Positions 8,755 to 63,969 of a stretch of 64,000 nucleotides of DNA are shown piece after piece. Origin of the DNA: Chthoniobacter flavus (lineage in GTDB: Bacteria > Verrucomicrobiota > Verrucomicrobiia > Chthoniobacterales > JACTMZ01); the NCBI GenBank assembly GCA_945871065.1, contig CAMBUL010000005.1, positions 1,011-65,010 of the forward strand. Direction: 5' to 3'. Positions within the stretch are counted from its first letter, which is position 1. Each line of letters starts with the position of its first letter. Position numbers and translations under genes: made by a program. The notes beneath the pieces were generated by a model. It worked only from the letters and a program-made list of their open reading frames with translations, searched no databases and was not told the origin of the DNA.

Positions 8755-8755
8755 C

Positions 8756-16075: not shown

Positions 16076-16090
16076 CGCTTCAATCCGCGA

Positions 16091-39749: not shown

Positions 39750-39756
39750 TCCGGGC

Positions 39757-39790: not shown

Positions 39791-39821
39791 TTGGCTGCGG
39801 CGCCAAACCGGCGCCGGTGCC

Positions 39822-40295
39822 TCAAACCACCAGAAGCGATTTATGAATCTTGGCGACGATCTTGTGGATCTGACGATTGTGTCCGTCGGAAACAAGGGGC
39901 TTGTGTCCGTCCCCGGGAAACAAAAAGACGAACAGACCATCCCGCATGGCAAGCAAAGCATCAGCCGCCGCCGGGGCATAGAATTGCAAATCCGCGGCCA
40001 CGTCATAGGCAGCATCCGCACTCAGCTTCTCCGCCGGTGCCCACTCGATCACCTCGCCGCCGCCCAGGATGTATTGCAGGTCGACATATTCCCGGTGCGT
40101 CTCCCACTTGAAACTCTCGCGGGCCCCCGTCTCCCGGCGGAGCACTCTGACGAAAAGTTTGTCGCCGGCAAACTCCACTCTGGTGTCGCCTCCGACATCG
40201 CGGCAATTCCGCAGCCAGGCAAACAGCGGCGCCGGGTCCACACCACGGAAGAGCGGGGCGTAGTGAGGAAGATTGTTATGCGTGTCGAGGATCAT
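39822..40295 (-). CDS. YhcH/YjgK/YiaL family (DUF386) protein
   Basis: The internal ATG at 40295 gives a 157-aa protein (MILDTHNNLPHYAPLF...HREYVDLQYILGGGEVIEWA...PGDGHKP) typical of this cupin-like family. Confidence 0.65.
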   Translation of the reverse strand: MILDTHNNLPHYAPLFRGVDPAPLFAWLRNCRDVGGDTRVEFAGDKLFVRVLRRETGARESFKWETHREYVDLQYILGGGEVIEWAPAEKLSADAAYDVAADLQFYAPAAADALLAMRDGLFVFLFPGDGHKPLVSDGHNRQIHKIVAKIHKSLLVV

Positions 40296-40302
40296 AAAAT
40301 AG

Positions 40303-40722
40303 TCAGAACTGTCGCTCGGGATGATGCTTCCGCACCGTGTCGAGGACATGCCAATAGCTTGTCCGGCTCGCCGGTTTGATTTGCAGCCGGTCACGACCGA
40401 TCATCCGGGCGACAGCTGCCAGCGGCGTCACGACCAGAAAGTAAACCGCGGCCAGGGCAAGGTGCCCGATGGTCCAGGACACGGCATAAACAAAGCCCAT
40501 CCAAAGGAGATAAGCCGGCAGGCCGGCTTTCGATCCGGTCACACCAGTCAAAAAAGCGAAAGCCCCGAAGCCCCAAAGAAACTTTGCCAATCCTTCGCCG
40601 CCGCGGAAAATACCCCACTCAAGAAAATAAAATAGCGAACCGACCAGGCCTAGAGCCGCCGCCAGAAGAACAGCCCACTGCCGCATCTCCCGCGGCGAAG
40701 GACTCCAATTGATGATGATCAT
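40303..40722 (-). CDS. SxtJ-like small membrane protein
   Basis: 139 aa with 3-4 TM segments, positioned after a carbamoyltransferase and a DUF5989-type gene, as in sxtI-sxtJ-sxtK-like triads. The family call comes from context and general resemblance. Confidence 0.5.
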   Translation of the reverse strand: MIIINWSPSPREMRQWAVLLAAALGLVGSLFYFLEWGIFRGGEGLAKFLWGFGAFAFLTGVTGSKAGLPAYLLWMGFVYAVSWTIGHLALAAVYFLVVTPLAAVARMIGRDRLQIKPASRTSYWHVLDTVRKHHPERQF

Positions 40723-40764
40723 AATCTCCAGTTCACCGCTGCGTTCACCGAGACCCGCTTTTTC

Positions 40765-40923
40765 TTAAAACAGGGTGTAAATGAAAGGCGCTGCTTTTGT
40801 CCCACCAAGGATGATCAACGCACCGACGAGCAGCAGGACAATGATGATGGGGGCGATAAAATACGCTTTATTCGACAGGATGAAATCGAACAACTCGGCA
40901 ATAAAGGAGCGGCGACGGGCCAT
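40765..40923 (-). CDS. DUF5989 / SxtK-like small membrane protein
   Basis: The internal ATG at 40923 gives 52 aa (MARRRSFIAELFDFILSNKAYFIAPIIIVLLLVGALIILGGTKAAPFIYTLF) with the characteristic single TM and PFIYTLF C-terminus. Confidence 0.6.
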   Translation of the reverse strand: MARRRSFIAELFDFILSNKAYFIAPIIIVLLLVGALIILGGTKAAPFIYTLF

Positions 40924-41031
40924 GTTCGGGGAAGTGTTCAGTTTTCGGTATCGGGTGTCCAGTACACGATGAACTATCGGCGCTGAGATGCCTGCGGTGG
41001 TTGCCACGCCAACCCCTTCTCCCCTCGCCAC

Positions 41032-42858
41032 TCAGTCGCGGGCCAGAAACCGACGCCGATACTCCTCTGCTCCCGGCATCCTGGGTTGCCCGTCTTTCCT
41101 CATCAAGCAATCGCCGACCACAAGGACATCCATGTCCGTGAACATGAAACAACGGTAGGCATCACCCGGGGAATGCACGATCGGCTCACCGCGGATGTTG
41201 AAACTTGTGTTAACCAGCAGGGGGCAGCCGGTGCGACGCTCGAAGGCGCTGAGAATGGCGTGGAAGCGGGGGGAGCGGTCCGCGCTGACCGTTTGCACCC
41301 GGGCTGAATGGTCGACGTGAGTGACGGCCGGAATATCGCTGCGCGCCGCTTTGAGCCTTTCGAAACCGTGGAGTTTGTCGTTTTCCGGGGCAAGACGCGC
41401 ACGCCGGTCCGGGCGGACCTGCGCGACAAGGAGCATGTAGGGACTCTCCGCGGTCATCTCGAAATACCCGGACTGGCGGCCTTCCAGCACCGCGGGGGCA
41501 AAGGGACGGAATGACTCTCGGAATTTGATGGCCAGATTCATGCGCCTTTGCATATCCGGATCGCGCGGATCACCGAGCAGAGAACGATGACCGAGTGCGC
41601 GGGGACCGAATTCCGCGCGACCGGAGAAGTGACCCACGATCTTCCCCTGAGCCAACTCGGCCGCGATTTCTTCGGCCAGATCTTCCTCCTTGGCATAAAC
41701 CTCGTAGGCCGCGTGCACGGCATCGAGTTCCTCCCGCACCGCTCGTGAGGTGAATTCCGGCCCGAGATACGACCCCCGCTGGGAATCCTCCCGCTTGGGG
41801 CGGCGTGGATTATCCTGCACTTGGTACCAGCACCACAATGCGGCACCAAGTGCTCCTCCGGCATCGCCGGCCGCCGGCTGGATCCAGATGTTCTCAAAAA
41901 GCTCTTCACGGAGAAGGCGGCCATTGGCGACGCAATTAAGGGCGACTCCACCGGCCAGACAAAGATTCTGCAACCCGGTCGCGCGGCGGACATGACCCGC
42001 CATCTTGAGGACAACATCTTCGGTCACCACCTGTATGCTCGCCGCCACATCCATGTGGCGCTGAGCCAACTTTTCGTCCGGCTTCCGGGGCGGCCCGCCG
42101 AAAAGCGCGTGAAAGCGGGCATTGGTCATGGTCAGGCCCTCGCAATAATTAAAAAACCGCTGGTCCAACCGGAAAGAACCATCGTCCTTGATCTCGATGA
42201 GATGCTCGCGAATCAGGTCGGCAAAGCGCGGTTCGCCATAAGGAGCAAGGCCCATGAGTTTGTACTCACCCGAATTGATCTGGAATCCGCAATAAGAGGT
42301 GAAAGCGCTGTAGAGCAGCCCGAGAGAATGGGGAAAGCGGATTTCAGCGCGCAGTTCAATCCTGTTGCCCCGCCCGACCCCCCAGCTGGTCGTCGTCCAC
42401 TCCCCCACCCCATCCATCGTGAGAATGGCTGCCTCCTCGAACGGGCTGGGAAAAAAGGCGCTCGCCGCGTGCGCCTCGTGGTGGCTGCTGAAATAAATTG
42501 GGCCCGCGTAGTCGCCGCCCAAACCCTTGTCGATTTCTCGCGGCAGGTGCAGCTTGGTTTGCAACCACTGCGGCATGGCCCGAAAAAAGGAGAGGAGCCC
42601 GCGGGGGGCAACGGCGAGGTAAGTCTCGAGCAAGCGCTCGAACTTCAGCAATGGCTTCTCGTAGAAAACCACCGCATCCAAATCACCGTTCGTGATTCCG
42701 CCGGCTTCGAGGCAATAGCGAACCGCGCTTTCCGGAAACCGCTCATCGTGCTTCTTCCGCGTAAATCGTTCCTCTTGAGCTGCGGCCACAATCTCCCCGT
42801 CGCGCACCAGCGCGGCCGCGCTGTCGTGGTAGAAGGCGGAAATACCGAGGATATTCAT
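41032..42858 (-). CDS. carbamoyltransferase (NodU/CmcH family)
   Basis: The internal ATG at 42858 gives MNILGISAFYHDSAAALVRDGEIVAAAQEERFTRKKHD, the hallmark N-terminus. About 608 aa with the C-terminal YrdC-like-less carbamoyltransferase domain (NTSFNIRGEPIV). Confidence 0.85.
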   Translation of the reverse strand: MNILGISAFYHDSAAALVRDGEIVAAAQEERFTRKKHDERFPESAVRYCLEAGGITNGDLDAVVFYEKPLLKFERLLETYLAVAPRGLLSFFRAMPQWLQTKLHLPREIDKGLGGDYAGPIYFSSHHEAHAASAFFPSPFEEAAILTMDGVGEWTTTSWGVGRGNRIELRAEIRFPHSLGLLYSAFTSYCGFQINSGEYKLMGLAPYGEPRFADLIREHLIEIKDDGSFRLDQRFFNYCEGLTMTNARFHALFGGPPRKPDEKLAQRHMDVAASIQVVTEDVVLKMAGHVRRATGLQNLCLAGGVALNCVANGRLLREELFENIWIQPAAGDAGGALGAALWCWYQVQDNPRRPKREDSQRGSYLGPEFTSRAVREELDAVHAAYEVYAKEEDLAEEIAAELAQGKIVGHFSGRAEFGPRALGHRSLLGDPRDPDMQRRMNLAIKFRESFRPFAPAVLEGRQSGYFEMTAESPYMLLVAQVRPDRRARLAPENDKLHGFERLKAARSDIPAVTHVDHSARVQTVSADRSPRFHAILSAFERRTGCPLLVNTSFNIRGEPIVHSPGDAYRCFMFTDMDVLVVGDCLMRKDGQPRMPGAEEYRRRFLARD

Positions 42859-42960
42859 CAGATAGCAAAAATAGAGAGGGCCGGAAAACCGCGGCAAATC
42901 TACGGACAACCCTTCATCCGGGAGATTCTTTGCGGCCTGCCGGCCCCTTGGGTTGCCAAA

Positions 42961-43827
42961 TTACTCCACGATGCGGCGCAGATACTGCCCGTAGAAAGAC
43001 TTACCGAAACGGTTAGCGCGTGCGGCCAGCTGGTCTTTGCTCAGCCACCCCTGATGGAACGCGATCTCCTCCAAGCAGGCGATCATCAGGCCCTGGCGCG
43101 ACTGGATAGCATGAACGAACGACGCGGCATCGAGCAACGACTCGGCCGTGCCTGTGTCCAGCCACGCTGTGCCACGGCCGAATTTCTCCGCGCGCAGTGA
43201 TCCTTCATCCAAGTAGCAGCGGGCGAGCTCGAGAATTTCGGTTTCACCTCGATTCGACGGCTTGAGCGATGCGGCAAACTCCGGCGCACGACCGTCGAAA
43301 AAGTAAATTCCCGGCACGGCGTAGCCGGACCGGGGATGCGGCGGCTTCTCCTCGAGCGAGAGGACCTTGCCGGCGTCATCCAGTTCGATCACCCCGTAGG
43401 CCCGCACGTCGGACACATGGTAAGCGAAAAGAGTCCCGCCTTGCGCCGCGGCAGCCGACTTGACGCTTTCGCTCAGTCGCGCGCCATAGAAAAGATTGTC
43501 GCCCAAGACCAAACAGGAAGGAGAACCGGCGAGGAATTCCTCCCCGATAGCGAAGGCTTGGGGCAGCCCCTCCGGCTTGGCCTGCTCAGCGTAGGTGAAC
43601 TCGACGCCGAAGGCCGAGCCATCACCGAGCAATTCTTTGAAGCGCGGCAAATCCCGCGGCGTCGAAATGACCAGAATTTCCCGCATCCCGCCGAGCATGA
43701 GCACGCTCAATGGGTAGTAGATCATCGGCTTGTCGAATACCGGGAGAAGTTGCTTGGAGATGGAGGAAGTGCACGGGTGCAACCGCGTGCCACTGCCCCC
43801 GGCCAGAACGATTCCTTTGCGTTTCAT
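42961..43827 (-). CDS. rfbA: glucose-1-phosphate thymidylyltransferase
   Basis: 288 aa with KGIVLAGGSGTRLHPCTSSISKQLLPVFDKPMIYYPLSVLMLGG. Confidence 0.9.
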   Translation of the reverse strand: MKRKGIVLAGGSGTRLHPCTSSISKQLLPVFDKPMIYYPLSVLMLGGMREILVISTPRDLPRFKELLGDGSAFGVEFTYAEQAKPEGLPQAFAIGEEFLAGSPSCLVLGDNLFYGARLSESVKSAAAAQGGTLFAYHVSDVRAYGVIELDDAGKVLSLEEKPPHPRSGYAVPGIYFFDGRAPEFAASLKPSNRGETEILELARCYLDEGSLRAEKFGRGTAWLDTGTAESLLDAASFVHAIQSRQGLMIACLEEIAFHQGWLSKDQLAARANRFGKSFYGQYLRRIVE

Positions 43828-43880
43828 TTCTCTAAGTTTTCCGTGGTTCAGTGTTCAGTTTTCAGCCAAGCAACTTCTGG

Positions 43881-43904
43881 AGGGCGAGCGTCCCCGCGAG
43901 CCGC
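43881..43904. repeat. 24-nt direct repeat, copy 1 (AGGGCGAGCGTCCCCGCGAGCCGC)
   Basis: Identical to 44598-44621. Extending to 43877/44594 gives 27 of 28 matches. Confidence 0.9.
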
Positions 43905-43916
43905 GACACGAGTTCA

Positions 43917-44318
43917 TCATAGCAACTTGTATGCCGCCACCGAAAGACCGGGCACCGCGGTAAAATGCGCCGGGTTTCGCGTCAAGACCGGCGCGTCCAG
44001 CACCGAGGCGGACGCCGCGATCCACAGATCAGGATAGTCGGGGGCTCTGCCCTTCCGGGCCATGGTCACCCAAAGATCGCAGTAGCGATCGATAGTGCGT
44101 TGATCCAGCGCCAAGCGGAGGAAGCCGCGGTAAAAAGATTCGAGAGCTTCCCGGCCGACGCCTTTGTGCAGCGCCCCGCGAGAAAACTCGGCTTCCGTGA
44201 TCCAAGGCACCACCAACGATGCGCCCCGCGCCTTGCGCACCAGCTCCTCCAACCGCTGCGGCGTCCGGCGATGACGCCACAGGTCGATCAGCACGGTGGT
44301 GTCAGCAATCAGGTCCAC
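43917..44318 (-). CDS. vapC: type II toxin VapC (PIN domain ribonuclease)
   Basis: 133 aa with PIN acidic residues in MDLIADTTVLIDLW... and a C-terminal ...LTRNPAHF. It overlaps the upstream antitoxin gene by 10 nt. Confidence 0.8.
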   Translation of the reverse strand: MDLIADTTVLIDLWRHRRTPQRLEELVRKARGASLVVPWITEAEFSRGALHKGVGREALESFYRGFLRLALDQRTIDRYCDLWVTMARKGRAPDYPDLWIAASASVLDAPVLTRNPAHFTAVPGLSVAAYKLL

Positions 44319-44533
44319 GCCGAAGGAATGTGTTGCCGCCCGGCATTGAGAGCCTGCTCGAGATCGTCGAAATCGGTGGCGGACATGGAAGGCAATTTTT
44401 CGGCCGCCTCGAAAGCCGCCTCGATCGTCCCCTTGGGCGGGATCATCCGCTCGATCACTTCAGAAAAGGTCCTCCCGTCCTTCCAAGAAGCCAGCCTGTG
44501 GTAGGCACTTTCAGTCAGAGAAATCGTCTTCAT
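44309..44533 (-). CDS. vapB: VapB-type antitoxin (PF02697-like, MKTISL..SAYHRL..SFSEVI pattern)
   Basis: Internal ATG at 44533. The 74-aa product MKTISLTESAYHRLASWKDGRTFSEVIERMI... lies immediately upstream of and overlapping vapC. Confidence 0.65.
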   Translation of the reverse strand: MKTISLTESAYHRLASWKDGRTFSEVIERMIPPKGTIEAAFEAAEKLPSMSATDFDDLEQALNAGRQHIPSAWT

Positions 44534-44597
44534 CTGTGTGACACAGAACACAAAACACAGCCTGCGTCAATCCAAAGCGGCTCTCAAACTCCCCTGT

Positions 44598-44621
44598 AGG
44601 GCGAGCGTCCCCGCGAGCCGC
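44598..44621. repeat. 24-nt direct repeat, copy 2
   Basis: Identical to 43881-43904. Confidence 0.9.
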
Positions 44622-44723
44622 CTGATCTGCAGCCTTTGGTTCTGATCGATTGCGCCTCCACCCTCTGCAGAGCCGACAAAAGCCGCAGACCATTTGTCGG
44701 CGAGCGAAACAGGTGCAACGTCT

Positions 44724-44870
44724 CTTACACGCTTCGCCACTCGCTCAATGGCATCATAATCACAGGTTCTGCTCCCCAGCGGGAAACCACAACAGGCTGC
44801 CCCTCTTCAGCAACCATGTCCGAAAGCCGGTCAAAGCTGCTGGTATTTTCCGCGTATGAAAATTTTTTCA
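44724..44870 (-). pseudogene. Phd/YefM-like antitoxin remnant (48 codons, GTG start, no cognate toxin)
   Basis: Hand translation of the minus strand gives VKKFSYAENTSSFDRLSDMVAEEGQPVVVSRWGAEPVIMMPLSEWRSV*. It resembles the N-terminal half of Phd/YefM antitoxins and is below the 60-aa cutoff of the ORF track. Confidence 0.35.
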
Positions 44871-45018
44871 CGAACTGGCGAGCTGAATCAGAAATTTTTG
44901 ACCACAGATATCACGAATGTCACTGATGGTAAGAACAAACTCTGGTTCCACTCTTCCAACCCCCGTCTGACACCATTCGTGCAATCAGTGTCATACGTGG
45001 TCAACTTCATCTGACCAC

Positions 45019-45561
45019 TCAAAGATACTCCGCCATCTCGTAAAGCTGCGGATCCCGCCGCGGCGGCAGCCGGCGACGCAAGGCCCCCGCGGCGCCTTTT
45101 TCTCCCTCGCCCTTCCCCATCCCGAAATCCCCCATCGAATCCTCGTCGAGCACATCGCCGTATTCCGCTTCGAGCTTTTCCGGATCCTCGCCTTTTTCCA
45201 TGCGCGCCAGCATTTCAAGCATCGGCTCGGGCATTTTTTCGCCGGTGATGTCCATCATCTTGCGCATCATGCGCCCCAGTGCGCGCGGGTCCGGATTTTC
45301 CTCATCCATACCGGACATTTCGCCGGCCAGCTTCATCATTTCCGCTTCCTGCCGCGGATCGAGATCCGGCATGCCTTCGCCACCGGGTTCCTCTGTCTTT
45401 TCTTTGGCCCGTCCCGTGATGGCAAATGGTGAGAGCACACGATCCATCTTTTGCCCTTCACCCTCGGGACAGCGCGGCACGACATCCGGACCGACCAGCT
45501 TGCGAGCGTAGAAGCTATAAATCTTGTGCGTATCAGCGGAGTAATATTCGTAAATGGGCAT
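45019..45561 (-). CDS. hypothetical acidic Met/Glu-rich protein with a degenerate FmdB-type zinc-ribbon N-terminus
   Basis: MPIYEYYSADTHKIYSFY...PRCPEGEG resembles the MPxYEYxCxxCG start of the FmdB family, but the first Cys pair is missing. The rest is low-complexity. Confidence 0.4.
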   Translation of the reverse strand: MPIYEYYSADTHKIYSFYARKLVGPDVVPRCPEGEGQKMDRVLSPFAITGRAKEKTEEPGGEGMPDLDPRQEAEMMKLAGEMSGMDEENPDPRALGRMMRKMMDITGEKMPEPMLEMLARMEKGEDPEKLEAEYGDVLDEDSMGDFGMGKGEGEKGAAGALRRRLPPRRDPQLYEMAEYL

Positions 45562-45570
45562 GGGGACGAC

Positions 45571-45663
45571 TAGGGATGTAGGAGGAGACCTGAAACCTGA
45601 GTGATATTGCAGCGGCCGGAGGCCGATAACTTCTTACTCAAGTCTCCGACTCAAGTTTCAGCC
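45571..45663. repeat. ~90-nt intergenic repeat element, copy A
   Basis: Colinear with 55201-55290. Matching blocks are AGGGATG.AGG; GAGACCTGAAAC.TG.GT (16 of 19); a central GC hairpin; and a 26-nt block ACTCAAG.CTC..ACTCAAGT.TCA (21 of 26). Confidence 0.7.
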
Positions 45664-46029
45664 TTGGTTCCTTTGTTTCGTGTTCTTCGACATCGTGACA
45701 AAGATTCGAATCAGCTCATCGGCTTCAGTCCAGACTTTTTCGAGTTCGTCTGAATTCAGCCCGCAATCGTCCCGGAGCAATTCCAGCCAATACTGCGTCT
45801 CGTCGGCCTCTTGGGCGCACAACTCGATCTTGGCAACAAACTCGCTGTCGCTGCGCGCTTTCGAGGCCTCACGGTAATTCGCTCCGACCGAGGTCCCAGC
45901 TCGAAGCATCTGCTTGCCCAGAACGCGCAGTTCCTCCCTCTTTTTATCAAGCGAAACAAAGAACCGCACGACCGAACCCCCGAACCGTTTGGTACGGACC
46001 CGCATTTCATCACTTTTAGACGCGCTCAA
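45658..46029 (-). CDS. four-helix-bundle protein (23S rRNA intervening-sequence protein / Avd-like family, TIGR02436-type)
   Basis: GKQMLRAGTSVGANYREASKARSDSEFVAKIELCAQEADETQYWLELL matches the family signature. The start may instead be the M at 46005. Confidence 0.8.
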   Translation of the reverse strand: MSASKSDEMRVRTKRFGGSVVRFFVSLDKKREELRVLGKQMLRAGTSVGANYREASKARSDSEFVAKIELCAQEADETQYWLELLRDDCGLNSDELEKVWTEADELIRIFVTMSKNTKQRNQG

Positions 46030-46038
46030 CTGCCTTGC

Positions 46039-46064
46039 ACTCAGCTTTCCGACTCAAGTCTCCG
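46039..46064. repeat. 26-nt block of the intergenic repeat, partial copy C
   Basis: ACTCAGCTTTCCGACTCAAGTCTCCG matches 45636-45661 at 21 of 26 positions and overlaps the rmlB stop codon. Confidence 0.6.
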
Positions 46065-47130
46065 CCTTCTCCGCCAGTCCTAATCTTTCCCGCCCGTAGC
46101 TGCGTTCCTCAACCGCCTGGCACCACGTGTTGCTAGCTAGATACCATTCGACCGTGCGGCGGATGCCGGATTCGAAGGACTCGGACGGATTCCAACCCAA
46201 TTCGCGGGTCAGTTTGGAGAAATCCATGGCGTAGCGCAGGTCGTGGCCTGGCCGGTCGGTGACAAAAGTCTTCAGCCGAGTATGCGGGCCAGCCGGATCC
46301 GGACGCAACTCGTCGAGGAGCGCGCAAATCGTATCAACCACATCGATGTTCATCTTCTCCGCCGCACCCCCGATATTGTAGGTCTCCCCGAAGACCCCAC
46401 CTTGCAGCACCGTCCAGATGGCCCGGCAATGGTCTTCGACAAACAGCCAATCACGGATGTTCTCTCCTTTGCCGTAGATGGGCAGCGGCTTACCCTCGAT
46501 CGCATTGCGGATGATCAGCGGGATAAGCTTTTCCGGGAATTGGTAAGGCCCGTAGTTGTTCGAGCAATTCGTCGTCACCACCGGCAGCTTGTGCGTGTGG
46601 AACGCCGCCCTCACCAAAAAGTCACTCGCTGCTTTGCTCGCCGCATAGGGACTGTTCGGTGCGTAGGGGGTATGCTCCGTAAAGGCCGCGTCTCCCGCCT
46701 GCAGGGTACCGTAAACCTCGTCCGTGGAAACATGGAGGAACCGGAACTTCGTCTTCCGCTCATTTCCGAGGTCCTTCCAGTAGCCGCGCACCGCATCGAG
46801 CAACCGCTGAGTTCCAAGAACATTCGTAGTGATAAACGGCTCCGGCGAGTCAATCGAACGATCCACATGCGACTCGGCGGCGAAATTGAGGACGGCGTCA
46901 ATTTGGTTTTCGCGCAATAACTTGGCCACGAGCGCGGCATCTCTGATGTCGCCTTCGACAAACACGTGCCGCGAATCCCCGTCGAGGTCGGCCAGCGAAC
47001 CGCGGTAACCCGCGTAGGTGAGCAAATCTAGATTGACCAGTTTTCCAACTTTCCACCCGGGGGATTGCAAGGCCAAGCGGACAAAGTTTCCTCCGATAAA
47101 TCCGGCGCCGCCGGTGATGAGGAGATTCAT
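46054..47130 (-). CDS. rfbB: dTDP-glucose 4,6-dehydratase
   Basis: The internal ATG at 47130 gives MNLLITGGAGFIGGNFV. YAASKAASD (YxxxK) is present, and similarity to RmlB is visible end to end. The last ~7 codons run into the repeat block. Confidence 0.9.
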   Translation of the reverse strand: MNLLITGGAGFIGGNFVRLALQSPGWKVGKLVNLDLLTYAGYRGSLADLDGDSRHVFVEGDIRDAALVAKLLRENQIDAVLNFAAESHVDRSIDSPEPFITTNVLGTQRLLDAVRGYWKDLGNERKTKFRFLHVSTDEVYGTLQAGDAAFTEHTPYAPNSPYAASKAASDFLVRAAFHTHKLPVVTTNCSNNYGPYQFPEKLIPLIIRNAIEGKPLPIYGKGENIRDWLFVEDHCRAIWTVLQGGVFGETYNIGGAAEKMNIDVVDTICALLDELRPDPAGPHTRLKTFVTDRPGHDLRYAMDFSKLTRELGWNPSESFESGIRRTVEWYLASNTWCQAVEERSYGRERLGLAEKAET

Positions 47131-47180
47131 AAGAAAAGCAACATGTGGATCCGTGACGAGACAGGTCAACCAACGCGGTC

Positions 47181-50312: not shown

Positions 50313-50327
50313 GCTGTTGCGGCTTCT

Positions 50328-55193: not shown

Positions 55194-55200
55194 TGTGGAA

Positions 55201-55290
55201 GAGGGATGAAGGCTGAGACCTGAAACTTGGGTCAAATAAAGGCAGCTGGAGGCTGGAGCAACTCACTCAAGCCTCAAACTCAAGTCTCAT
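55201..55290. repeat. ~90-nt intergenic repeat element, copy B
   Basis: See copy A. It lies between the two paralogous membrane-protein genes, 8 nt upstream of the start codon at 55193. Confidence 0.7.
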
Positions 55291-55302
55291 CCCTTTCTTT
55301 TT

Positions 55303-55827: not shown

Positions 55828-56268
55828 ACTTTAGTGCATGTCTCTCACGGAGGCACGGGGAGCGCAAAGGCAGGATTCACGGAGGCGAAGCCTTTAACAA
55901 CGCGCGTCAGCGACTAGGTCCACGATGCTACCCGTTTCCAAGCTTTCGGGCGGCCGTAGGTTTCTTCATCCAACGGGAGGGTTTTCATCACGAACATGCA
56001 GACACGAACAGCAGCACGAGCTAAGATGATTCTGGAGGCAATGCTTTCGACTGACTTCGCGCCAAACTCGCCACGACGTGGCAGTGACCCAAACCTGGCT
56101 CTGCCAGACTCTTCCTGTTCCAGCGCCCGCGTGAGCCCCCGTGGGACTGTCCCCCTTCATGGCAGAGTGTAGGTCAACTGGCAGAAGCCAGCCACCAACG
56201 TCAGGCTGGTCGCAAGGAAGACCGACATTCTCGGACCGGGTCTGCTGACGTCCTACGGACGGAGCGAA

Positions 56269-57333: not shown

Positions 57334-58481
57334 CTAAGCGGACGAAGAAAAGGCAGCCACTGGAACAGTTTCCGATCGATCGCTTCGAGGGGCCGGTAGA
57401 TCCGCGCCCACTGGTCGGCCTCATCAATAACCTTTTTCCAGTAGCGCTCCTTGTTCGGGCTTCTGCCTTGCCCCACCGCCATCCAGATGAAGACGAGAAG
57501 CGTCGTGAGCCAGAACCAGCGAACCTCGGCCTGCTCGAACCGGCTAGCGATGGCGCGAACATCACGCAGGCGGAGGGGGTGTTCGTCCGGAGTTCGCACC
57601 TTGGTGGCCAAGGCGCGGTACAGGTTGATGACCGGGTTATATGCCACCGGGTCCCAACTGACAAAGACACCGCCGAGTTTAAGATGTGGAAGCAGTTGAT
57701 CCATCATAGCTTCGATGTCTGCGTGGTGAAGTGTGTTCCCGGTGTAGATGATGTCGAACTGACGATCATGAGGCAGCCCAAGGTCTTCCACCGCGGAGAC
57801 ATGAGTGCGGAGGTTGACTCCGTTGAGTCCTGCGAGCTTTTGAGCCGTGGCGCACATGCCCGGAGAGATGTCGGTCGCAGTCACAGCCGCCCCTTCCAAG
57901 GCGAAATAGACGCTTGCCTCGCCCAGGCCGCAGCCGACATCAAGAAGTTCACGACCACCGAGATCCCCAAGCACGGAACGGATGTGGCGCATCTCCGGAG
58001 CTGTGCATGCCTCGTTGCGACGCCGGATATCGATGGAGGCCACATCCTCACTAGCGGCCCACTCATCGTGAAAATTCTCCTCGGCCAGCTTTCGCCGCTC
58101 GTCGCACGCGGCAGAAGCGCCCCTAGTCGGGAGCCCGGACGCTTTCAGCATGCTTAGAAGCTCCGAATCGAAGAAACTTCGATTAGCCTCCATAACGCGA
58201 TCATCTGCGAAAAGCTGGCCGACAGCCTCTTGATTGACGGCATGCGTGGCCGAGTCACCCCGGGTGTAGAAGCGGGCGGACTTGAGAGTGACGATATGTT
58301 CACCCGGCTGGGGAAAGGTCCAACAGACGCGAACCTGTCTTGGGGCGGGTTGGTCGAAGGCCAACGCCGACATCCAGCGAGCGACTGAATCCGCTTCATT
58401 CCGTGGCAGCCTGTGCTGCAGACGCCAACCGGCAGCGGATAGCTGGTGGACGGCACTTTCGTACAGAATTTTTTTGGGCAT
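57285..58481 (-). CDS. class I SAM-dependent methyltransferase with C-terminal membrane segment
   Basis: LLDVGCGLGEASVYFALEGAAVTATDISPGM motif I/II and a C-terminal hydrophobic stretch RWFWLTTLLVFIWMAVG. Confidence 0.7.
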   Translation of the reverse strand: MPKKILYESAVHQLSAAGWRLQHRLPRNEADSVARWMSALAFDQPAPRQVRVCWTFPQPGEHIVTLKSARFYTRGDSATHAVNQEAVGQLFADDRVMEANRSFFDSELLSMLKASGLPTRGASAACDERRKLAEENFHDEWAASEDVASIDIRRRNEACTAPEMRHIRSVLGDLGGRELLDVGCGLGEASVYFALEGAAVTATDISPGMCATAQKLAGLNGVNLRTHVSAVEDLGLPHDRQFDIIYTGNTLHHADIEAMMDQLLPHLKLGGVFVSWDPVAYNPVINLYRALATKVRTPDEHPLRLRDVRAIASRFEQAEVRWFWLTTLLVFIWMAVGQGRSPNKERYWKKVIDEADQWARIYRPLEAIDRKLFQWLPFLRPLSWNVAIVGRRPRPSRP

Positions 58482-58486
58482 GCCGG

Positions 58487-59722
58487 TCAGTGGGTCGCAG
58501 CCATTTCCAAGGAGCGGCTTTGGCCTGGCAACTCGATGCGTTCCCTCCTCTCGTTGCGGATCCGCTCCGCGATTTCAACCAGCTTCTCGTAGGTGAAAGG
58601 CCATTTCTTGACCGGCGGTGCGGCGAGGAAAAGCTTCACGCGATCCCACTTGGCGGCAAGGTAGCGCATGGCGATCGTCATCTCGGGATAACTGCCGAAC
58701 ATGCATCCTTGGCAGGCCTTCGTCACCCGCAACACCTCGTCACGAAAAACCTTGTCACGGTAGATCTTGGGGAAATCGGCGTCGTAAGTGTGGATCTGCG
58801 AGGGGATGCGGTGGTCGCAACAAGGAGCAAAGTCCCCGTTTGGCAGGACGGCAAAATAAAGATTTGGGCTGTCGCAGACCCCCGCATTCTTCTGCCTCCA
58901 AGTTGTGGGGTCTCCAGCCGCGAAGCGCTTGACGTCATCAAGGTATTGGTCGCTGTCGTAGAGCAGGAACCCTTCGTGCCGCATGGCACGCACTCGCTCT
59001 ACCAAAGTGTTGACATAGGGCAACTCGTCAGGGCGCCATCGTTTGGTCTGGTCGAAAGAACGGAAGCTCATGGGTTTGTCGAAAGTCGTGAGATGGATCG
59101 GCACCAGCGAGGTGAACCAACTGATCTGGGTGCCGAACCGGATGACATCCTCGACGTCGCCTAGGTTGTCGCGCTGGAGCACGCATCCCAGGGAGGCGAA
59201 ACTTCCCTCCTTTGGCAGGAACTGGGTGAAAGAAGCCATGGCTTGGAGCGCGTCATGCCAGGATTTCGTGAATCCACCATTGATTTCATCCTGATTGCCC
59301 GGCCAGAGAGAATCCAAGGATATCGAAATGTCGCGGCCGCCAGCTTCTATGACTTGCTGTATGCGTTCATGCGTGGCAAGGCCGTTTGTCTGCATGCGAA
59401 CATGGACTCCCCTGCTGGTGAACGCACGGATGATCTCGGGCAGATCAAGGCGTGTGAAGGGTTCTCCTCCAGTGAGCAAGACCATCGCCACCCGCATGCG
59501 GGCGAAGTTGTCCGCGATGCGTTTGATCTCATCCAAGGTGCATTCCCGGACGTCGGAATTTGCGTAAATGATGTTGCATTGCTGGCAGGTCAGGTTACAG
59601 CGGGCCGTGATGTAAAACTGGACATAGACCGGGGCGTCCTGAACAAGGGCGGCACGGGCAAGCGTGAGCTTTGAGGAAACAGGGAACATTGGAGGCACTA
59701 CGGTCGCATCGCGAAACGCCAA
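58487..59722 (-). CDS. radical SAM protein with Cys-rich C-terminal (SPASM/twitch-like) extension
   Basis: CNLTCQQCN (CxxxCxxC), GGEPF, and later cysteines (GVCDSP...FAPCCDH...KACQGCMFG). Confidence 0.8.
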   Translation of the reverse strand: MAFRDATVVPPMFPVSSKLTLARAALVQDAPVYVQFYITARCNLTCQQCNIIYANSDVRECTLDEIKRIADNFARMRVAMVLLTGGEPFTRLDLPEIIRAFTSRGVHVRMQTNGLATHERIQQVIEAGGRDISISLDSLWPGNQDEINGGFTKSWHDALQAMASFTQFLPKEGSFASLGCVLQRDNLGDVEDVIRFGTQISWFTSLVPIHLTTFDKPMSFRSFDQTKRWRPDELPYVNTLVERVRAMRHEGFLLYDSDQYLDDVKRFAAGDPTTWRQKNAGVCDSPNLYFAVLPNGDFAPCCDHRIPSQIHTYDADFPKIYRDKVFRDEVLRVTKACQGCMFGSYPEMTIAMRYLAAKWDRVKLFLAAPPVKKWPFTYEKLVEIAERIRNERRERIELPGQSRSLEMAATH

Positions 59723-60576
59723 GTCAACACTGACTGCTCGTCGGGATTCAAAGCCTCACACATGCTGAGCAGCAGCGCCGGCCCCGCCACGATCGGCACT
59801 AGAAGAAGACCGACCGCGTCACGCGCCGCTGAGACGCGCGAGATGCCACGCTTCAAGCGGTAGTAGATATAGTTGTGCCCGGGCATGACGAGGTTAAGCA
59901 GACCTTGAATCCATCCAAACACATTGTAAGGCCAGGAGATCGTAGCGCCTGTGCGCACAAACCCATGGCGGGTGAAAAGTCGATTCAATGAGTCAGGCGT
60001 GAACTGTTGAAGGTGTCCCGGCGGGTCATAGAAAGCATATCGCCGGCCAAGCCAGCGGCACTGCCAGGAAGCAGCATTCGGAACCGAAACAATCACGCAC
60101 CCTCCTCTGGCTAGACGGGTGGAAAGAGTTTCGACCAACTTTTCCAAGGCCGCTGCGGGGAAGTGCTCCAAACTATGCCAAGCCGTGGCGACATCGATGG
60201 GCCCGTCGACGCCGTCGAGACCACCCACAATCTCCAAACCCTGCCGGCGAGCGAAATCCACGGACGGCAGGGATATCTCCACTCCGCAAACACGCTTGAA
60301 GCGGCCGGCCACCGCGATGAGGAAGCGACCCGCGCCGCAGCCGACATCAACCAGAGAGCCATGGCCGCCGTCTGAGAAAGTGGAGAGGACATGGGCTTGG
60401 AATTTCTCCAACCATGAGGGCCGGGAGGCGGTTGGCGACCCAAGGTCGTCATTCACCATAAAGACCTGCTCCTGCCCTGCGACAAGCACTTCGTGGCCGC
60501 AGTTCTCACAGCGCCGGTAGCCGGGAGTTCGCTCGGAAAATCCCGCGCTCCCACAGATGAAACAACCGGTAGTCAC
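59698..60576 (-). CDS. class I SAM-dependent methyltransferase with N-terminal zinc ribbon
   Basis: CFICGSAG...CENCGH and LVDVGCGAGRFL. Confidence 0.7.
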   Translation of the reverse strand: MTTGCFICGSAGFSERTPGYRRCENCGHEVLVAGQEQVFMVNDDLGSPTASRPSWLEKFQAHVLSTFSDGGHGSLVDVGCGAGRFLIAVAGRFKRVCGVEISLPSVDFARRQGLEIVGGLDGVDGPIDVATAWHSLEHFPAAALEKLVETLSTRLARGGCVIVSVPNAASWQCRWLGRRYAFYDPPGHLQQFTPDSLNRLFTRHGFVRTGATISWPYNVFGWIQGLLNLVMPGHNYIYYRLKRGISRVSAARDAVGLLLVPIVAGPALLLSMCEALNPDEQSVLTWRFAMRP

Positions 60577-60579
60577 GGA

Positions 60580-62280
60580 TCAGCGCAAACCGCTCATCAG
60601 CCTTTTCCAAAGCGCCACCGACCATGCGCGAGGTAGCAACCTCGCTGCCAAGGCCATGCCATGGGCTCGAGCAGATACCACCACAGTGCGACTTGCACGC
60701 GGTAATTCTCGCATAATGCGATCGGCGACCTCGCCTGGCTGCATCAATTTTTCCGAATCGAGGCGGCGCACCCCGGCTGTCGCTTGAAAGTTGGTCTGCA
60801 TGCCACCGGGACAAATAGTCAGGATTTCCACACCGCTGCCCGAAATTTCGGCGGCCCAAGCCTCGCCAAGCAGGAGCAGGGCCGCGTTTGACGCAGCGTA
60901 GGATGCCATGCCCGGCAACGGCTGGAACGCAGAGGACGACGAGATAAACACGATCCGCCCGAAGTGCTGGCGTTTCATCGCAGGCAGCGCGGCTTGCGCA
61001 AGGGCCAACCGCGCTTCCAAGTTGACCCGAAACAGCCGGGCGTGGTCCGCCGTCGTTGACGCGTCCACAGTTCCGCGCAGGCCGAGGCCGGCACAAGCGA
61101 TCAACTCGCTCACCGGAAACTCAGTCCACGAGGGAGAATGAAGAAACTCCTGAATCTCTTTCTCGCTCGCGAGATCCAGCACATAGGTGCGAGCATGCGG
61201 GTGCGCGGCTTGCAATTCGGCGATGCCGGCCGCATCGCGGTCGACGAGCAGAATGCGGCGGCGAAGCGGTGCCAGGCGCTCAGCCATCGCCCGCCCCAGT
61301 CCCGAGGCTGCACCGGTGATCACGCACTGGCCAGGCACATCGGTAAGCGGGGCATGCCGGGCCCTCTCGCGGGCAACCACCTCCAGCAATGCTGACCGCG
61401 CCGGCACGCGCAGCTGCCAGCCCAAGGCCCTTAGCGGCGCATCATCCGCCGTAAGCGCCGGCCGGAGCAGCGCTTTCAGTTTGAAGGGAAGCATCCCGGC
61501 CATGGGTTCAAGCCATCCCATCGGCAGCCTGAATGCATCGGGACTCGCCATTTCGAAGACCTCACTCACAGCTACCGGCTCGCCAGAGCAGAAAAATGTG
61601 CGCCCCGCCGCTTCCGGGTGAGTGGAGACGGCGATCACTCCCGCCGCAAGGTCGGTCACATGCACGACGGAGAAGCGACCTGGCCACGCAAACTTCGCGG
61701 GCAGTGCGTTGCGCAGCGCCATCTGCACGAACACAGAAAAATGACTATCGGCGCGCATTTCGCCGCCAACAACCATGCCTGGGCGAACGATGGAAAAAGG
61801 CAACCCAGACACCCGGAAGAGTCGCTCGCACTCGGCCTTGGAGCGCCCGTAAAAAGATGCGGGATGCAGCGGCGAGTCTGCCGACAAAGGGACCCTGCAA
61901 TCATCGCCCGAAGGCCGGTCCACCGCGCCGATGCTGGACACGAGAACAACGCGTTGCAGCTCGGGGCCGGCTGCCTTAGCCGCCTCGAGAATCTTCAGGC
62001 CCCCTTCCACATTGTGCTGTGCCTCCGCACGACTCGACCCGAAGGCAGCGTTCGCCGCGCAGTGAATGATGACCTGAGAACCACTTGCGGCACGCATCCA
62101 ATCACCAGGCAAAGTTACGTCCCCGACGACCTGCTTGACACGAAGCTCGGCAAGCTCCGCGTCAGGCCGGCGAACCAAGCCAGCGACCTCGTGCCCGGCG
62201 GAGCGCAACTGGAGGCAAATAGCGCGACCAACAAACCCGGCTGCTCCCGTGATGAAGAATTTCGGCAAATGTCGGGACAT
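60580..62280 (-). CDS. two-domain SDR fusion: N-terminal extended SDR (epimerase/dehydratase/3beta-HSD-like) + C-terminal classical SDR with YxxxN in place of YxxxK
   Basis: The N-domain has FFITGAAGFVGRAI and YGRSK. The C-domain has CVITGAASGLGRAMAERL, ISSSSA and YAASNAAL. Confidence 0.75.
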   Translation of the reverse strand: MSRHLPKFFITGAAGFVGRAICLQLRSAGHEVAGLVRRPDAELAELRVKQVVGDVTLPGDWMRAASGSQVIIHCAANAAFGSSRAEAQHNVEGGLKILEAAKAAGPELQRVVLVSSIGAVDRPSGDDCRVPLSADSPLHPASFYGRSKAECERLFRVSGLPFSIVRPGMVVGGEMRADSHFSVFVQMALRNALPAKFAWPGRFSVVHVTDLAAGVIAVSTHPEAAGRTFFCSGEPVAVSEVFEMASPDAFRLPMGWLEPMAGMLPFKLKALLRPALTADDAPLRALGWQLRVPARSALLEVVARERARHAPLTDVPGQCVITGAASGLGRAMAERLAPLRRRILLVDRDAAGIAELQAAHPHARTYVLDLASEKEIQEFLHSPSWTEFPVSELIACAGLGLRGTVDASTTADHARLFRVNLEARLALAQAALPAMKRQHFGRIVFISSSSAFQPLPGMASYAASNAALLLLGEAWAAEISGSGVEILTICPGGMQTNFQATAGVRRLDSEKLMQPGEVADRIMRELPRASRTVVVSARAHGMALAARLLPRAWSVALWKRLMSGLR

Positions 62281-62430
62281 TATTCAGGCGTAAGCCTTGC
62301 TACTGAGAAGACTCCGGCTTTTGCTTAGACCCAAGGGGTCAAAATTGACCGAAATCCGCAAGTCCGACTCTCCAATGCCAATCAAGTGTGCTGAACCAGA
62401 CCGGCGGCGAACAAAACAAAGAGGGACCAC

Positions 62431-63969
62431 TTAAGGTGATCCCCGGGGACAAAAAAGCTTGTAGATCATATAGGACTCATCCGTGGAGCCACGCGCTGCA
62501 CCAAGCAAACTTCCTACACTCGAAGGAAGCGAAAGTTCGTATGGAGTGACCAGAATGATGTCCCGCTGATGCTTGGCCATGACATCGCTGACGACTTGCG
62601 ACAACTCTTGCGGCGAAAGCGGTGTCCCCCTGCGCTTCGCGTCAACTTTCGTGAAGGAGCCCATCTCGCCCCTGCTGGCGATATACACTTCTCTTCCGAG
62701 GTAGCCGGACAAGGGAATCATGAGATAATCGGGGTCACCAACGACCACGGTGTCTGGGCCGCCTGTTTCGCTTATGATCCGGGCCGCATCTCGGCTGCCG
62801 GAAAAAGGAACGAGGTGCTCTTGCGCAAGCAAAAGCGCCGCGACAGAAACATGAACAGCGAGGACAGCAGTCAGCACCGACCCGGCCCCTGCTCGAAGCC
62901 ACTCCCTCCAACGAGCACCATCCTCAGCCAATCGACCCATCGCCGAGTCGCGCAGGTAAATCCAATAAGAGAGCACGGCTAGGATGAAATACGGGCCATG
63001 GTAACGCATCGCCGTCCAAGGAAGGTGGCAAAGCAACATCCCGACTCCCAACAAGCCGATCAGAAACAGGAACAACGCGGTTCTCGATGTCGCAATCACG
63101 CAAGCGATCAAGGCTGCAACTCCTATACTAAGAAAGACTTGGAGCCAAGGCCACGGGTCGAGAACCTGTGAATTCCATCTGCCGAAAATCGGAACTGGTA
63201 ACCAGGCACGGATAGGAAACGCGAGACTCTCGCCCAATCGCGCTAGATGCGAGTCTGTGCGGAGGTCCTGCCCGAGAATAATCGGGGTGATCTCGGGCGG
63301 CGGAATCATCGTGGTCACGGCCGCCACGAAACTGACGATGACGACAGCGGTTCCTAGCCACAGTTGGGGATCCCTTAAACTTGATCGAGTCAATCGTCCG
63401 TTTCGCCATGAATCAAAGGCAAAAGTCAGCGCGAGAGCACAGCCCAAGGCCAGCCCAAAGGGATTGGTTTGGAACAGCAAAGCGACAACCACGCAGAAGA
63501 GCAACGGACGCCACTTACGCGAACACAAAACCACGCAGCAGCCGATGCTGAGCGCAAGGATGACGGAATAATCCCGAAGTATCGTCCCATACTCGTAAAG
63601 GGTAAAGTATCCGAATGAAAAAAGGATTTTCTGAAGTCTGCTGAGAGGTGCGTAACGACACAGCAGAAAAACTCCGATGGTGGAGATGAGAACAATGGCG
63701 AACTTGAAAAGCAACAGGCTGTCGTCAAGTTGAACAAGAATCCAAGCGAAAGAGAAATACGCCAGCCGGCCAATGTATTTGATGTGCTCAAAAAATTCTG
63801 CGTAGCCAGATGTGTGTTTGCTAACGACGAGGGGCATCCACTCGTCGCGCCACATCACGTGTCTGGTGGCAAAAAAAAGATTAACTACAAAAAAGACGCC
63901 CGCCGTGCACCAGGCGAAAAGGGCTCCAGCTGGATCCTGCTCTTGTTTGGCTTTTGGTTTGTTTATCAT
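62431..63969 (-). CDS. polytopic membrane protein, possible GT-C-type glycosyltransferase or polymerase
   Basis: 512 aa with about 11 TM helices followed by a ~110-aa C-terminal soluble domain. No diagnostic motif was recognised, and the gene is visibly more A/T-rich than its neighbours. Confidence 0.45.
   Translation of the reverse strand: MINKPKAKQEQDPAGALFAWCTAGVFFVVNLFFATRHVMWRDEWMPLVVSKHTSGYAEFFEHIKYIGRLAYFSFAWILVQLDDSLLLFKFAIVLISTIGVFLLCRYAPLSRLQKILFSFGYFTLYEYGTILRDYSVILALSIGCCVVLCSRKWRPLLFCVVVALLFQTNPFGLALGCALALTFAFDSWRNGRLTRSSLRDPQLWLGTAVVIVSFVAAVTTMIPPPEITPIILGQDLRTDSHLARLGESLAFPIRAWLPVPIFGRWNSQVLDPWPWLQVFLSIGVAALIACVIATSRTALFLFLIGLLGVGMLLCHLPWTAMRYHGPYFILAVLSYWIYLRDSAMGRLAEDGARWREWLRAGAGSVLTAVLAVHVSVAALLLAQEHLVPFSGSRDAARIISETGGPDTVVVGDPDYLMIPLSGYLGREVYIASRGEMGSFTKVDAKRRGTPLSPQELSQVVSDVMAKHQRDIILVTPYELSLPSSVGSLLGAARGSTDESYMIYKLFCPRGSP

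Follow-up and report, generated by a model that had tools for sequence, protein, structure and literature searches.

A mosaic minus-strand locus in uncultured freshwater Chthoniobacterales probably devoted to transmembrane glycosylation from lipid-phosphate sugars

We analysed a run of genes at positions 39822–63969 of a 64-kb window (the whole stretch of DNA examined, positions 1,011 to 65,010 of contig CAMBUL010000005.1, assembly GCA_945871065.1) from an uncultured freshwater lineage of Chthoniobacterales (Verrucomicrobiota) represented by contigs of metagenome-assembled genomes (MAGs). A first-pass annotation, made from the letters alone, had described this run as one uninterrupted super-locus for an envelope glycan or glycolipid. 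As it had claimed, all of the genes read from 63969 down to 39822 lie on the minus strand (25/25 plausible genes, by listing and translation of open reading frames (ORFs)), and the run ends at a strong bidirectional terminator. This G+C-rich hairpin is trailed on its minus-strand side by T9 and on its plus-strand side by a weaker GCATTTT tail, 3′ of a convergent Na/Ca-exchanger gene with which the run shares the terminator. Beyond the other end of the window, the identical contig L003, which reaches 884 nt further, carries a zinc alcohol dehydrogenase (Zn-ADH) gene on the same strand. Gene starts were revised against gene calls on related contigs. The glycosyltransferase (GT) genes, the small membrane proteins beside them and the landmarks needed to place them are as follows:

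62431–63969, minus strand: mem512, a polytopic 512-aa protein of GT-C fold, ArnT-like (AlphaFold, predicted local distance difference test (pLDDT) 91; Foldseek)
56269–57240, minus strand: GtrB323, a GtrB-type polyprenyl-phosphate GT2 (Synechocystis GtrB 5ekp, E 1e-85 over the full length; ArnC, E 2e-40)
55621–56268, minus strand: boundary between cassette and core, a 441-nt non-coding gap plus the 5′ end of mem174 (collinearity with the related contig L004 stops at 55620)
55303–55827, minus strand: mem174, three transmembrane (TM) helices and a basic cytoplasmic C-terminal domain of ~85 aa (topology prediction)
54648–55193, minus strand: mem181, likewise three TM helices and a basic ~85-aa cytoplasmic C-terminal domain (topology prediction)
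53878–54651, minus strand: GT2-257, a soluble ArnC/DPMS-like GT2 (Glycos_transf_2, 4e-17)
47181–50312, minus strand: the fusion, a GT-C::Ppm1/DPMS-like protein of 1043 aa (AlphaFold, Foldseek, sequence match to DPMS)
39764–39785, minus strand: intrinsic terminator at the end of the run (9-bp stem with 6 G-C pairs, 4-nt loop, T-run)

The most conserved gene of the locus encodes the GT-C/GT2 fusion. AlphaFold models of this protein (pLDDT 80.8) and of mem512 were built with alignments of database homologs; the model and topology prediction place in the fusion a multi-TM core, a beta-rich domain (residues 500–755), a helix (757–779) and a GT2 domain (810–1040). The N-terminal ~780 aa adopt a GT-C fold, with AftD (3e-9) and STT3 (2e-7) among the Foldseek matches, and the C-terminal domain matches DPMS, ArnC and GtrB; towards Pyrococcus DPMS (5mlz) it reaches a sequence E-value of 1e-26 and 33% identity in the Foldseek alignment. 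Across 47 homologs, E43/E44, past TM1, are invariant and the DAD/DXD motif (D901-A-D903) is nearly so. A helix (757–779) precedes the GT2 domain; therefore the GT-C site is predicted to be periplasmic and the synthase domain cytoplasmic. We describe the protein as having a GT-C fold, and not as a YfhO member, because its match to YfhO (PF09586) is below the cut-off (23.1 bits against 28.5, residues 705–757 only); the precomputed matches of its homologs are faint.

When 1.84 billion cluster representatives were searched exhaustively with HMMER, ~35 of them (50%-identity clusters) showed the full fused architecture, at 30–47% identity to the fusion, and many ~780-aa relatives consisted of the GT-C part only. 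Across the related GTDB loci the GT2 domain is 85–97% conserved, against 63–85% for the GT-C part. Terrimicrobiaceae carry the GT-C part alone, without the fused GT2, and distant genomes retain the fusion in other gene contexts. Looking up the exact sequence of the fusion, or that of a database protein 100% identical to it, retrieved no contig; gene context was obtained via mem512 and homologs instead. The full-text open-access literature that we searched held no description of a natural GT-C::GT2 fusion. Three metagenomic proteins (P0423, P0430 and P0436) carry a DPM1-like GT2 close to the C-terminal domain of the fusion, joined to GT4 (Glycos_transf_1) or GT9 heptosyltransferase domains. The GT2 domain of the fusion itself is 44–53% identical to stand-alone DPM1-like proteins of ~250 aa and to proteins of LNT_N+CN_hydrolase+GT2 (Ppm1-type) architecture. 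This is the architecture of Mycobacterium tuberculosis Ppm1, whose C-terminal domain alone makes polyprenyl-phosphate-mannose (PMC3485146); from these nearest other relatives of the GT2 domain we propose mannose as the sugar, and polyprenyl-phosphate-mannose would, by homology, most likely be the donor that the fusion makes.

The second donor-synthase candidate, GT2-257, was absent from the first-pass gene list. Its catalytic domain aligns end to end with ArnC (22–234 against 9–218, E 2e-6) and with DPMS (E 2e-5), and topology prediction gives it zero TM segments. Its start overlaps the stop of mem181 by 4 nt. No Pfam or NCBIfam match was found for mem174 or mem181, and BLASTP does not match one to the other; profile comparison alone reveals them as distant paralogs (hhalign probability 96.8%, E 3e-10, full length). 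A YSAxExDSPTLSL motif is conserved in mem174. The 112 homologs of mem181 are all unnamed, all from Verrucomicrobia/Chthoniobacterales and none with a Pfam domain, and they always adjoin GT2-257 homologs. The identity of GT2-257 follows the tailoring genes found beside it, being 50–100% with the HAD/APH genes and 26–27% where TPP/MT21 genes substitute for them. No locus protein matches the GtrA, MOP or SMR families, and the mem174/mem181 pair is only a candidate flippase. This family, set beside a GT2 that lacks TM segments, may be a new partner or flippase family.

It is conceivable, albeit doubtful, that the fusion is a self-contained machine that makes, flips and uses its donor: polyprenyl-phosphate-mannose from the tethered domain would be handed to the protein's own periplasmic GT-C, translocation being performed either by the GT-C membrane domain or by mem174/mem181 acting as a new family of flippases for lipid-phosphate sugars. 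If true, in either translocation case, the system would offer a tractable handle on the flippases for polyprenyl/dolichyl-phosphate-mannose, which are still unidentified.

The third set of glycosyltransferases lies in the upstream part of the run. GtrB323 is predicted to have two C-terminal TM helices (residues 226–277), and its best NCBIfam match is the PgfS model, at 237 bits and below the cut-off. For mem512 we found no Pfam, NCBIfam or PDB sequence match, and its likeness to ArnT/PMT_2 (GT83/GT39) is in fold only: Foldseek places ArnT (5f15/5ezm, E 9e-6, template-modelling score ~0.5) first, then AftB, STT3 and Emb. Residues H37, W40, R41, D42 and E43, past TM1, are invariant in its homologs. 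The two GT-C-like membrane proteins of the first-pass annotation thus both have the GT-C fold according to AlphaFold and Foldseek, each with an invariant acidic motif past TM1, and its two polyprenyl-phosphate-sugar synthase-type GT2s, GtrB323 and the C-terminus of the fusion, stand on the 5ekp and DPMS matches, with GT2-257 as a third.

The Ppm1/DPMS-like GT2 domain raises the possibility that the GT-C enzymes glycosylate proteins, the fusion being a self-supplying enzyme of protein O-mannosyltransferase type comparable to Pmt/Ppm1 or Pgf. In actinobacteria, PPM is reported to supply Pmt-dependent lipoprotein glycosylation (PMC3460810), which fits this idea, as does the sub-cut-off match of GtrB323 to PgfS, a protein of streptococcal protein glycosylation. 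In the distant fusion-bearing genome L031, moreover, the fusion gene is overlapped at its 3′ end by the gene for a 965-aa TMEM260-like GT-C with tetratricopeptide repeats (12915–15812 of L031), a neighbour that hints at protein O-mannosylation in that lineage. The N-terminal domain of the fusion, however, finds its structural matches in AftD and STT3, not in PMT; its beta-rich periplasmic domain is similar to the carbohydrate-binding modules that PMC8035078 considers for AftD and YfhO; and close linkage to dTDP-sugar tailoring genes is a trait seen more typically in glycan loci. We consider protein glycosylation an improbable function for this locus.

We then surveyed the locus for the genes of conventional glycan assembly. 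In line with the first-pass annotation, searches by Pfam, NCBIfam, PDB sequence and fold identify none of the 25 locus proteins as a Wzx, Wzy, Wzz, ABC exporter or initiating phosphoglycosyltransferase, and the large membrane proteins, among which Wzx/Wzy or ABC homologs would have pointed to an ordinary O-antigen or exopolysaccharide (EPS) locus, are of GT-C fold instead. The same families are missing among the annotated ORFs in the rest of the window and in the 10-kb flanks of related loci; ABC or ABC-2 domains are found neither in the locus nor in the annotated window ORFs, and the locus encodes no GT-B or other cytoplasmic polymer-building glycosyltransferase. What it does contain is two complete pairs of GT2 and GT-C and a third GT2 that has no GT-C partner. 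We place all three GT2s in the polyprenyl-phosphate branch because GtrB323 resembles GtrB, the C-terminal domain of the fusion resembles DPMS, and GT2-257 resembles ArnC/DPMS; by homology, all three are synthases of polyprenyl-phosphate sugars. Because of this GT2/GT-C content, and because no export or initiation genes were found, periplasmic transfer from lipid-phosphate donors is the best reading of the locus. The earlier proposal of periplasmic decoration of a pre-existing polymer or lipid is retained as far as the transfer is concerned, but not in what it said of the acceptor. We conclude that the run is probably a mosaic surface-glycan locus built on multi-component transmembrane glycosylation rather than on Wzx/Wzy or ABC export.

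The mosaic structure emerges from a synteny comparison with 62 related GTDB loci; the relatives come from lakes such as Mendota and Loclat. The recurrent order is mem174–mem181–GT2-257, a variable tailoring block, then fusion–rmlB–Zn180–(VapBC)–rmlA–(carbamoyl triad)–DUF386; the core genes (mem174–mem181–GT2-257 and fusion–rmlB–Zn180–rmlA–DUF386) are 57–100% identical in relatives, and the order of the second group persists down to ~63% identity. The locus is held between conserved flanks, Zn-ADH on one side and serA plus an amine oxidase gene on the other. Contig L004 (97% nucleotide identity) is collinear from 38911 to 55620, with an extra 1.8-kb insertion between the fusion gene and rmlB that includes a Phd/PIN toxin–antitoxin pair; upstream of 55620 it carries another cassette, with genes for a methyltransferase, an epimerase and a DPMS-like GT2 and for a polytopic protein of 583 aa that shows 8 or more hydrophobic segments and ends in a soluble domain. 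We considered kinship between this 583-aa protein and the mem512 family and rejected it, hhalign finding no relation. Another relative (L006/L011) has no cassette at that position, and among the 62 loci the mem512/GtrB cassette itself was found only on the identical contig and, as a reduced version, in L019. The block at 55.6–64 kb is therefore a strain-variable 8-kb unit, with its GtrB homolog, ArnT-like GT-C, short-chain dehydrogenases/reductases (SDRs), radical S-adenosylmethionine (SAM) enzyme and methyltransferases. The idea of one super-locus is not supported by this comparison, which shows a conserved core, cassettes that are exchanged or missing from locus to locus, and insertions of selfish genes.

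The remaining genes of the locus, passengers excepted, are listed here from upstream to downstream:

60580–62280, minus strand: two-domain oxidoreductase, an extended SDR, epimerase/reductase-like (Epimerase 1e-33, 9–225), plus a classical SDR (adh_short 3e-38, 320–501)
59698–60459, minus strand: SAM methyltransferase of 253 aa from the ATG at 60459, in an ORF that extends up to 60576 (Methyltransf_23, 1e-20)
58487–59722, minus strand: radical SAM enzyme with a Cys-rich SPASM/twitch-like C-terminus (PF04055, 75.6 bits; CNLTCQQC motif)
57285–58481, minus strand: SAM methyltransferase of 398 aa (Methyltransf_25/12/11, ~1e-15)
53300–53884, minus strand: HAD-like phosphatase, a weak assignment (HAD 20.9 bits against a cut-off of 27; NT5C 17.9 bits)
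52326–53303, minus strand: APH-family small-molecule kinase of protein-kinase-like fold (PF01636, 5.6e-11)
51161–52312, minus strand: MT383, a 383-aa SAM methyltransferase with a Cys-rich N-terminus (Methyltransf_23, 2e-18)
50328–51164, minus strand: RmlD-like SDR, not an RmlD equivalog (RmlD_sub_bind 6e-19; TIGR01214 62.8 bits against a cut-off of 224)
46054–47130, minus strand: RmlB, dTDP-glucose 4,6-dehydratase (TIGR01181, 474.5 bits against a cut-off of 365.1)
45019–45561, minus strand: Zn180, an FmdB-like Zn-ribbon protein of 180 aa with an acidic Met/Glu-rich tail (TIGR02605, 17.9 bits, below the cut-off)
42961–43827, minus strand: RmlA, glucose-1-phosphate thymidylyltransferase (TIGR01207, 430.8 bits against a cut-off of 360.65)
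40303–42858, minus strand: carbamoyltransferase triad, with a NodU/CmcH-type protein (41032–42858), DUF5989 (40765–40923) and an SxtJ-like membrane protein (40303–40722)
39822–40295, minus strand: DUF386 (YhcH/YjgK/YiaL), last gene of the run (PF04074, 3e-28; TIGR00022, 76.6 bits against a cut-off of 45.5)

Pfam and NCBIfam thus confirm the families named in the first-pass annotation (rmlA, rmlB, the RmlD-like SDR, the carbamoyl triad, three methyltransferases and the radical SAM enzyme). The kinase that it proposed is of the APH family, without an NCBIfam or PDB relative in sequence searches, but the HAD phosphatase is less secure, a DLDNT (DxDxT) motif being present at its N-terminus and its Pfam score lying under the threshold. 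RmlA and RmlB both exceed their NCBIfam equivalog cut-offs. Neither Pfam nor NCBIfam finds an RmlC-type protein among the locus genes, and the RmlD-like SDR scores far under the RmlD cut-off, so that the dTDP-rhamnose pathway implied earlier is not upheld; another 6-deoxyhexose, methylated or carbamoylated, is the more likely product of the dTDP branch. As to the tailoring enzymes, the two-domain SDR has a PRK07201-like architecture, the methyltransferase at 59698–60459 is likewise called at 253 aa on the identical contig L003, the radical SAM enzyme matches SPASM-type families only below their cut-offs, and a PDB sequence search with MT383 gave no informative match. The carbamoyltransferase triad (Carbam_trans_N 2e-104, Carbam_trans_C 2e-70, DUF5989 3e-17, SxtJ 8e-7) is accessory, being found in L004, L005, L012, L015 and L020 and missing from L001, L006 and L010. 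DUF386, another addition to the first-pass gene list, keeps its terminal position among relatives. Genes for E1-alpha/beta, a TPP enzyme and Zn-ADH lie upstream in relatives, and we considered whether they might make a branched-chain sugar for the locus; this candidate was downgraded because ADH and a UbiE-like methyltransferase belong to 77–91% conserved, housekeeping-like flanks that occur in most relatives.

With canonical RmlA and RmlB, and with methyltransferase, carbamoyltransferase and kinase genes that are typical of O-antigen tailoring, the run could also be an ordinary sugar and tailoring locus for O-antigen or EPS, with initiation, cytoplasmic glycosyltransferases and a flippase/polymerase or ABC exporter encoded elsewhere and the GT2/GT-C pairs acting as minor side-chain decorators. 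Its lower G+C content and the exchange of cassettes between conserved flanks are found in O-antigen loci too, and the sequence inspected amounts to 64 kb of a genome. Set against this, the polymer-building glycosyltransferases and the Wzx, Wzy, Wzz, ABC and phosphoglycosyltransferase genes are missing from locus, annotated window and relatives' 10-kb flanks alike, and the gene that is best conserved is itself a GT-C/GT2 enzyme. We regard an ordinary O-antigen/EPS locus as unlikely.

Zn180, also new to the gene list, is syntenic in relatives at 75–99% identity, always between rmlB and rmlA; this conservation exceeds that of most locus enzymes, and a regulatory role is possible. The first-pass annotation saw no regulator, which holds within the window, conserved FmdB-like Zn180 aside, but not for relatives: in a 63–65%-identical lineage, genes for a NusG paralog (NusG N-terminal and KOW domains, 186 aa) and a 240-aa protein stand directly upstream of the fusion gene (L001 8601–9973; L017 3403–4768), which suggests operon-specific antitermination in that lineage. 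As a regulator of the locus at large, the NusG-paralog antiterminator was set aside, since it occurs only in L001, L002 and L017 and has no counterpart in the window.

The run is interrupted by passengers, contrary to the claim of uninterrupted glycan genes:

45658–46029, minus strand: 23S_rRNA_IVP four-helix protein (PF05635, 1e-16)
44725–44871, minus strand: remnant of a Phd/YefM antitoxin gene, 48 codons (Pfam)
44309–44533, minus strand: VapB (Pfam)
43917–44318, minus strand: VapC, PIN toxin (Pfam)

VapBC, which like the 23S_rRNA_IVP gene had escaped the first-pass list, sits between two direct copies of a 28-nt repeat (43877–43904 and 44594–44621, 96% identical) and has the look of an inserted cassette; in relatives, the corresponding and adjacent junctions hold VapBC or Phd/PIN or are empty. 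The IVP gene is flanked by 30-nt repeats (45636–45665 and 46039–46081) and is missing in L005 and L006. Like the carbamoyltransferase triad, VapBC and the IVP gene count as accessory or passenger elements. The 30-nt repeat, of ACTCAAGTCTCCGACTCAAG type, occurs with a 52-nt companion at 45572–45665 and 46039–46081 and again in the mem174/mem181 spacer (55202–55294); repeats of the ACTCAAGTCTCCGACTCAAG type may be what a small mobile element has left behind.

These insertions bear on whether the run is a functional unit at all. Of the sizeable gaps listed earlier, 62281–62430 and 55828–56268 are real, with neither a credible ORF nor an Rfam match (the Rfam scan of 39–64 kb gave zero matches), but 44534–45018 holds the Phd/YefM remnant. 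The many tight junctions claimed are partly retained: after start revision, ~10/24 are overlaps or gaps under 20 nt, and several spacers of ~90–120 nt emerge. Apart from the terminal hairpin, terminator-like sites do not rise above background (23 observed against 23.7 expected). Promoter-like and terminator-like sites are no more frequent than in shuffled sequence, so that operon boundaries could not be set from the letters. The locus has a G+C content of 58%, whereas the remaining 39.8 kb of the window average 63.5%. The run could be a set of separate transcription units (cassette, core, rml block, toxin–antitoxin modules, carbamoyl triad) that merely share the leading strand: GC skew is negative over the entire window, the gaps at 62281–62430, 55828–56268 and 44534–45018 separate stretches of the run, modules come and go independently in relatives, and the toxin–antitoxin and IVP insertions bring their own flanking repeats. 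Yet gene orientation in the remaining ~39 kb of the window is mixed, about ten junctions are tight, the order from the fusion to DUF386 is kept down to ~63% identity, and the sole convincing terminator stands at the very end. We therefore hold a mere string of unrelated units to be very unlikely.

According to the transmembrane glycosylation that we favour, a GT2 at the cytoplasmic face would charge polyprenyl phosphate with the sugar of a nucleotide-sugar donor, the lipid-phosphate sugar would be flipped over the membrane, and a GT-C would move the sugar onto a periplasmic acceptor. Three units may work in this way. Firstly, in the conserved fusion, a periplasm-facing GT-C and a cytoplasmic Ppm1/DPMS-like synthase would be joined via an extra TM helix. 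Secondly, conserved GT2-257 would be translationally coupled with mem174/mem181, which could either anchor it as a membrane partner, in the way of GacJ with GacI, or form a heterodimeric flippase like ArnE/ArnF; this unit probably loads a locus-specific 6-deoxyhexose, which would be made by RmlA, RmlB and the RmlD-like reductase together with the adjacent methyltransferase, kinase and HAD genes. Thirdly, the strain-specific cassette would combine the GtrB homolog with the ArnT-like GT-C and with SDR, radical SAM and methyltransferase tailoring.

Each unit has known counterparts. GtrA-GtrB-Gtr*, CsbB-GtcA-YfhO and ArnC-ArnE/F-ArnT share the scheme of a cytoplasmic GT2 donor-maker with an external GT-C, and GtrB323 and the ArnT-like fold of mem512 correspond to their components; unlike these systems, the locus has no recognised GtrA, Wzx or ArnE/F-type flippase, has one of its pairs fused, and groups two to three modules with dTDP-sugar genes. 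The C-terminal domain of the fusion, like M. tuberculosis Ppm1 (Rv2051c) and Pyrococcus furiosus DPMS, appears by sequence to be of DPM1 type, with the DAD motif kept, and as in Ppm1 (PMC3485146) a soluble synthase is tethered to a large membrane domain. In the fusion the membrane partner is a GT-C transferase that presumably uses the product, whereas Ppm1 has an Lnt-like domain in this place and archaeal DPMS its own TM helices. GT2-257 recalls GacI/GacJ of Streptococcus pyogenes, a GT without TM segments beside small membrane protein(s), and the cytoplasmic GT-A with a separate membrane protein is described as a variant in PMC8035078; mem174/mem181, however, have no detectable homology to known partners, are a paralogous pair with basic cytoplasmic domains, and form a putative partnership. 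The locus shares RmlA and RmlB with the RmlABCD pathway to dTDP-L-rhamnose but differs in its lack of a detected RmlC and in its divergent RmlD-like SDR. The carbamoyltransferase triad is that of SxtI-SxtJ-SxtK in saxitoxin clusters (PMC2684587), an O-carbamoyltransferase with two small proteins, found here instead in a glycan locus and in only some relatives.

Several points weigh against transmembrane glycosylation as the function of the locus. None of its proteins is a recognised flippase (GtrA, Wzx, SMR-type ArnE/F), and two GT-Cs face three donor synthases, or one faces two in relatives that lack the cassette. The YfhO match of the fusion covers 53 residues at a sub-threshold 23.1 bits, and mannose specificity leans on 33% identity to DPMS and on 44–53% to DPM1/Ppm1-like proteins that are themselves uncharacterised. 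The analysis shows gene families, folds, catalytic motifs, predicted topology and synteny, and from these we infer the donor sugars, the flipping step, the acceptor and the operon structure; the rml genes could feed glycosyltransferases encoded elsewhere in the genome; and Wzx, Wzy, WaaL or a phosphoglycosyltransferase may lie outside the 64 kb of one MAG inspected here. The favoured type of system has precedents, a split GT-A with a membrane partner and three-component systems in Gram-negatives being reported in PMC8035078 and PMC11127046. Within this known type, new or undescribed features are the fusion of donor synthase and GT-C, the TM-less GT2 with a paralogous 3-TM pair, and the fact that two to three modules of this sort share a strain-variable island with dTDP-sugar tailoring genes in an uncultured phylum.

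Two further groups of genes were observed elsewhere in the window. On the plus strand at 33271–35450, a PAP2 phosphatase gene (33271–33969) precedes a PMT_2-family GT-C gene (~33966–35450) that abuts serA; the two lie 4.4 kb past the locus terminator on the opposite strand, and the PMT_2–serA adjacency recurs in L005. They are possibly a further consumer of lipid-phosphate sugars or a lipid A-type modification pair. Kinship of the mem512 family with this PMT_2 protein was rejected (hhalign probability 1.3%). At 246–17400 lies a separate lipid or aryl-polyene-like cluster, with two halogenase-like flavoenzymes, a ketosynthase, an acyltransferase, a GT2, a polysaccharide deacetylase, an LPG_synthase_TM protein, an AMP-binding enzyme and a 1057-aa MMPL::lipid-A-acyltransferase-like fusion (5581–8754).

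The fusion protein is a Rosetta-stone link from donor maker to donor user, and a compact system in which to study the hand-over and flipping of the donor. The envelope glycans of Verrucomicrobia are little known, above all those of the abundant uncultured freshwater Chthoniobacterales, and the locus suggests a surface glycan that is built or diversified largely via lipid-phosphate-sugar donors and GT-C enzymes. The swapping of whole modules between near-identical strains is the pattern expected under phage or grazer pressure.

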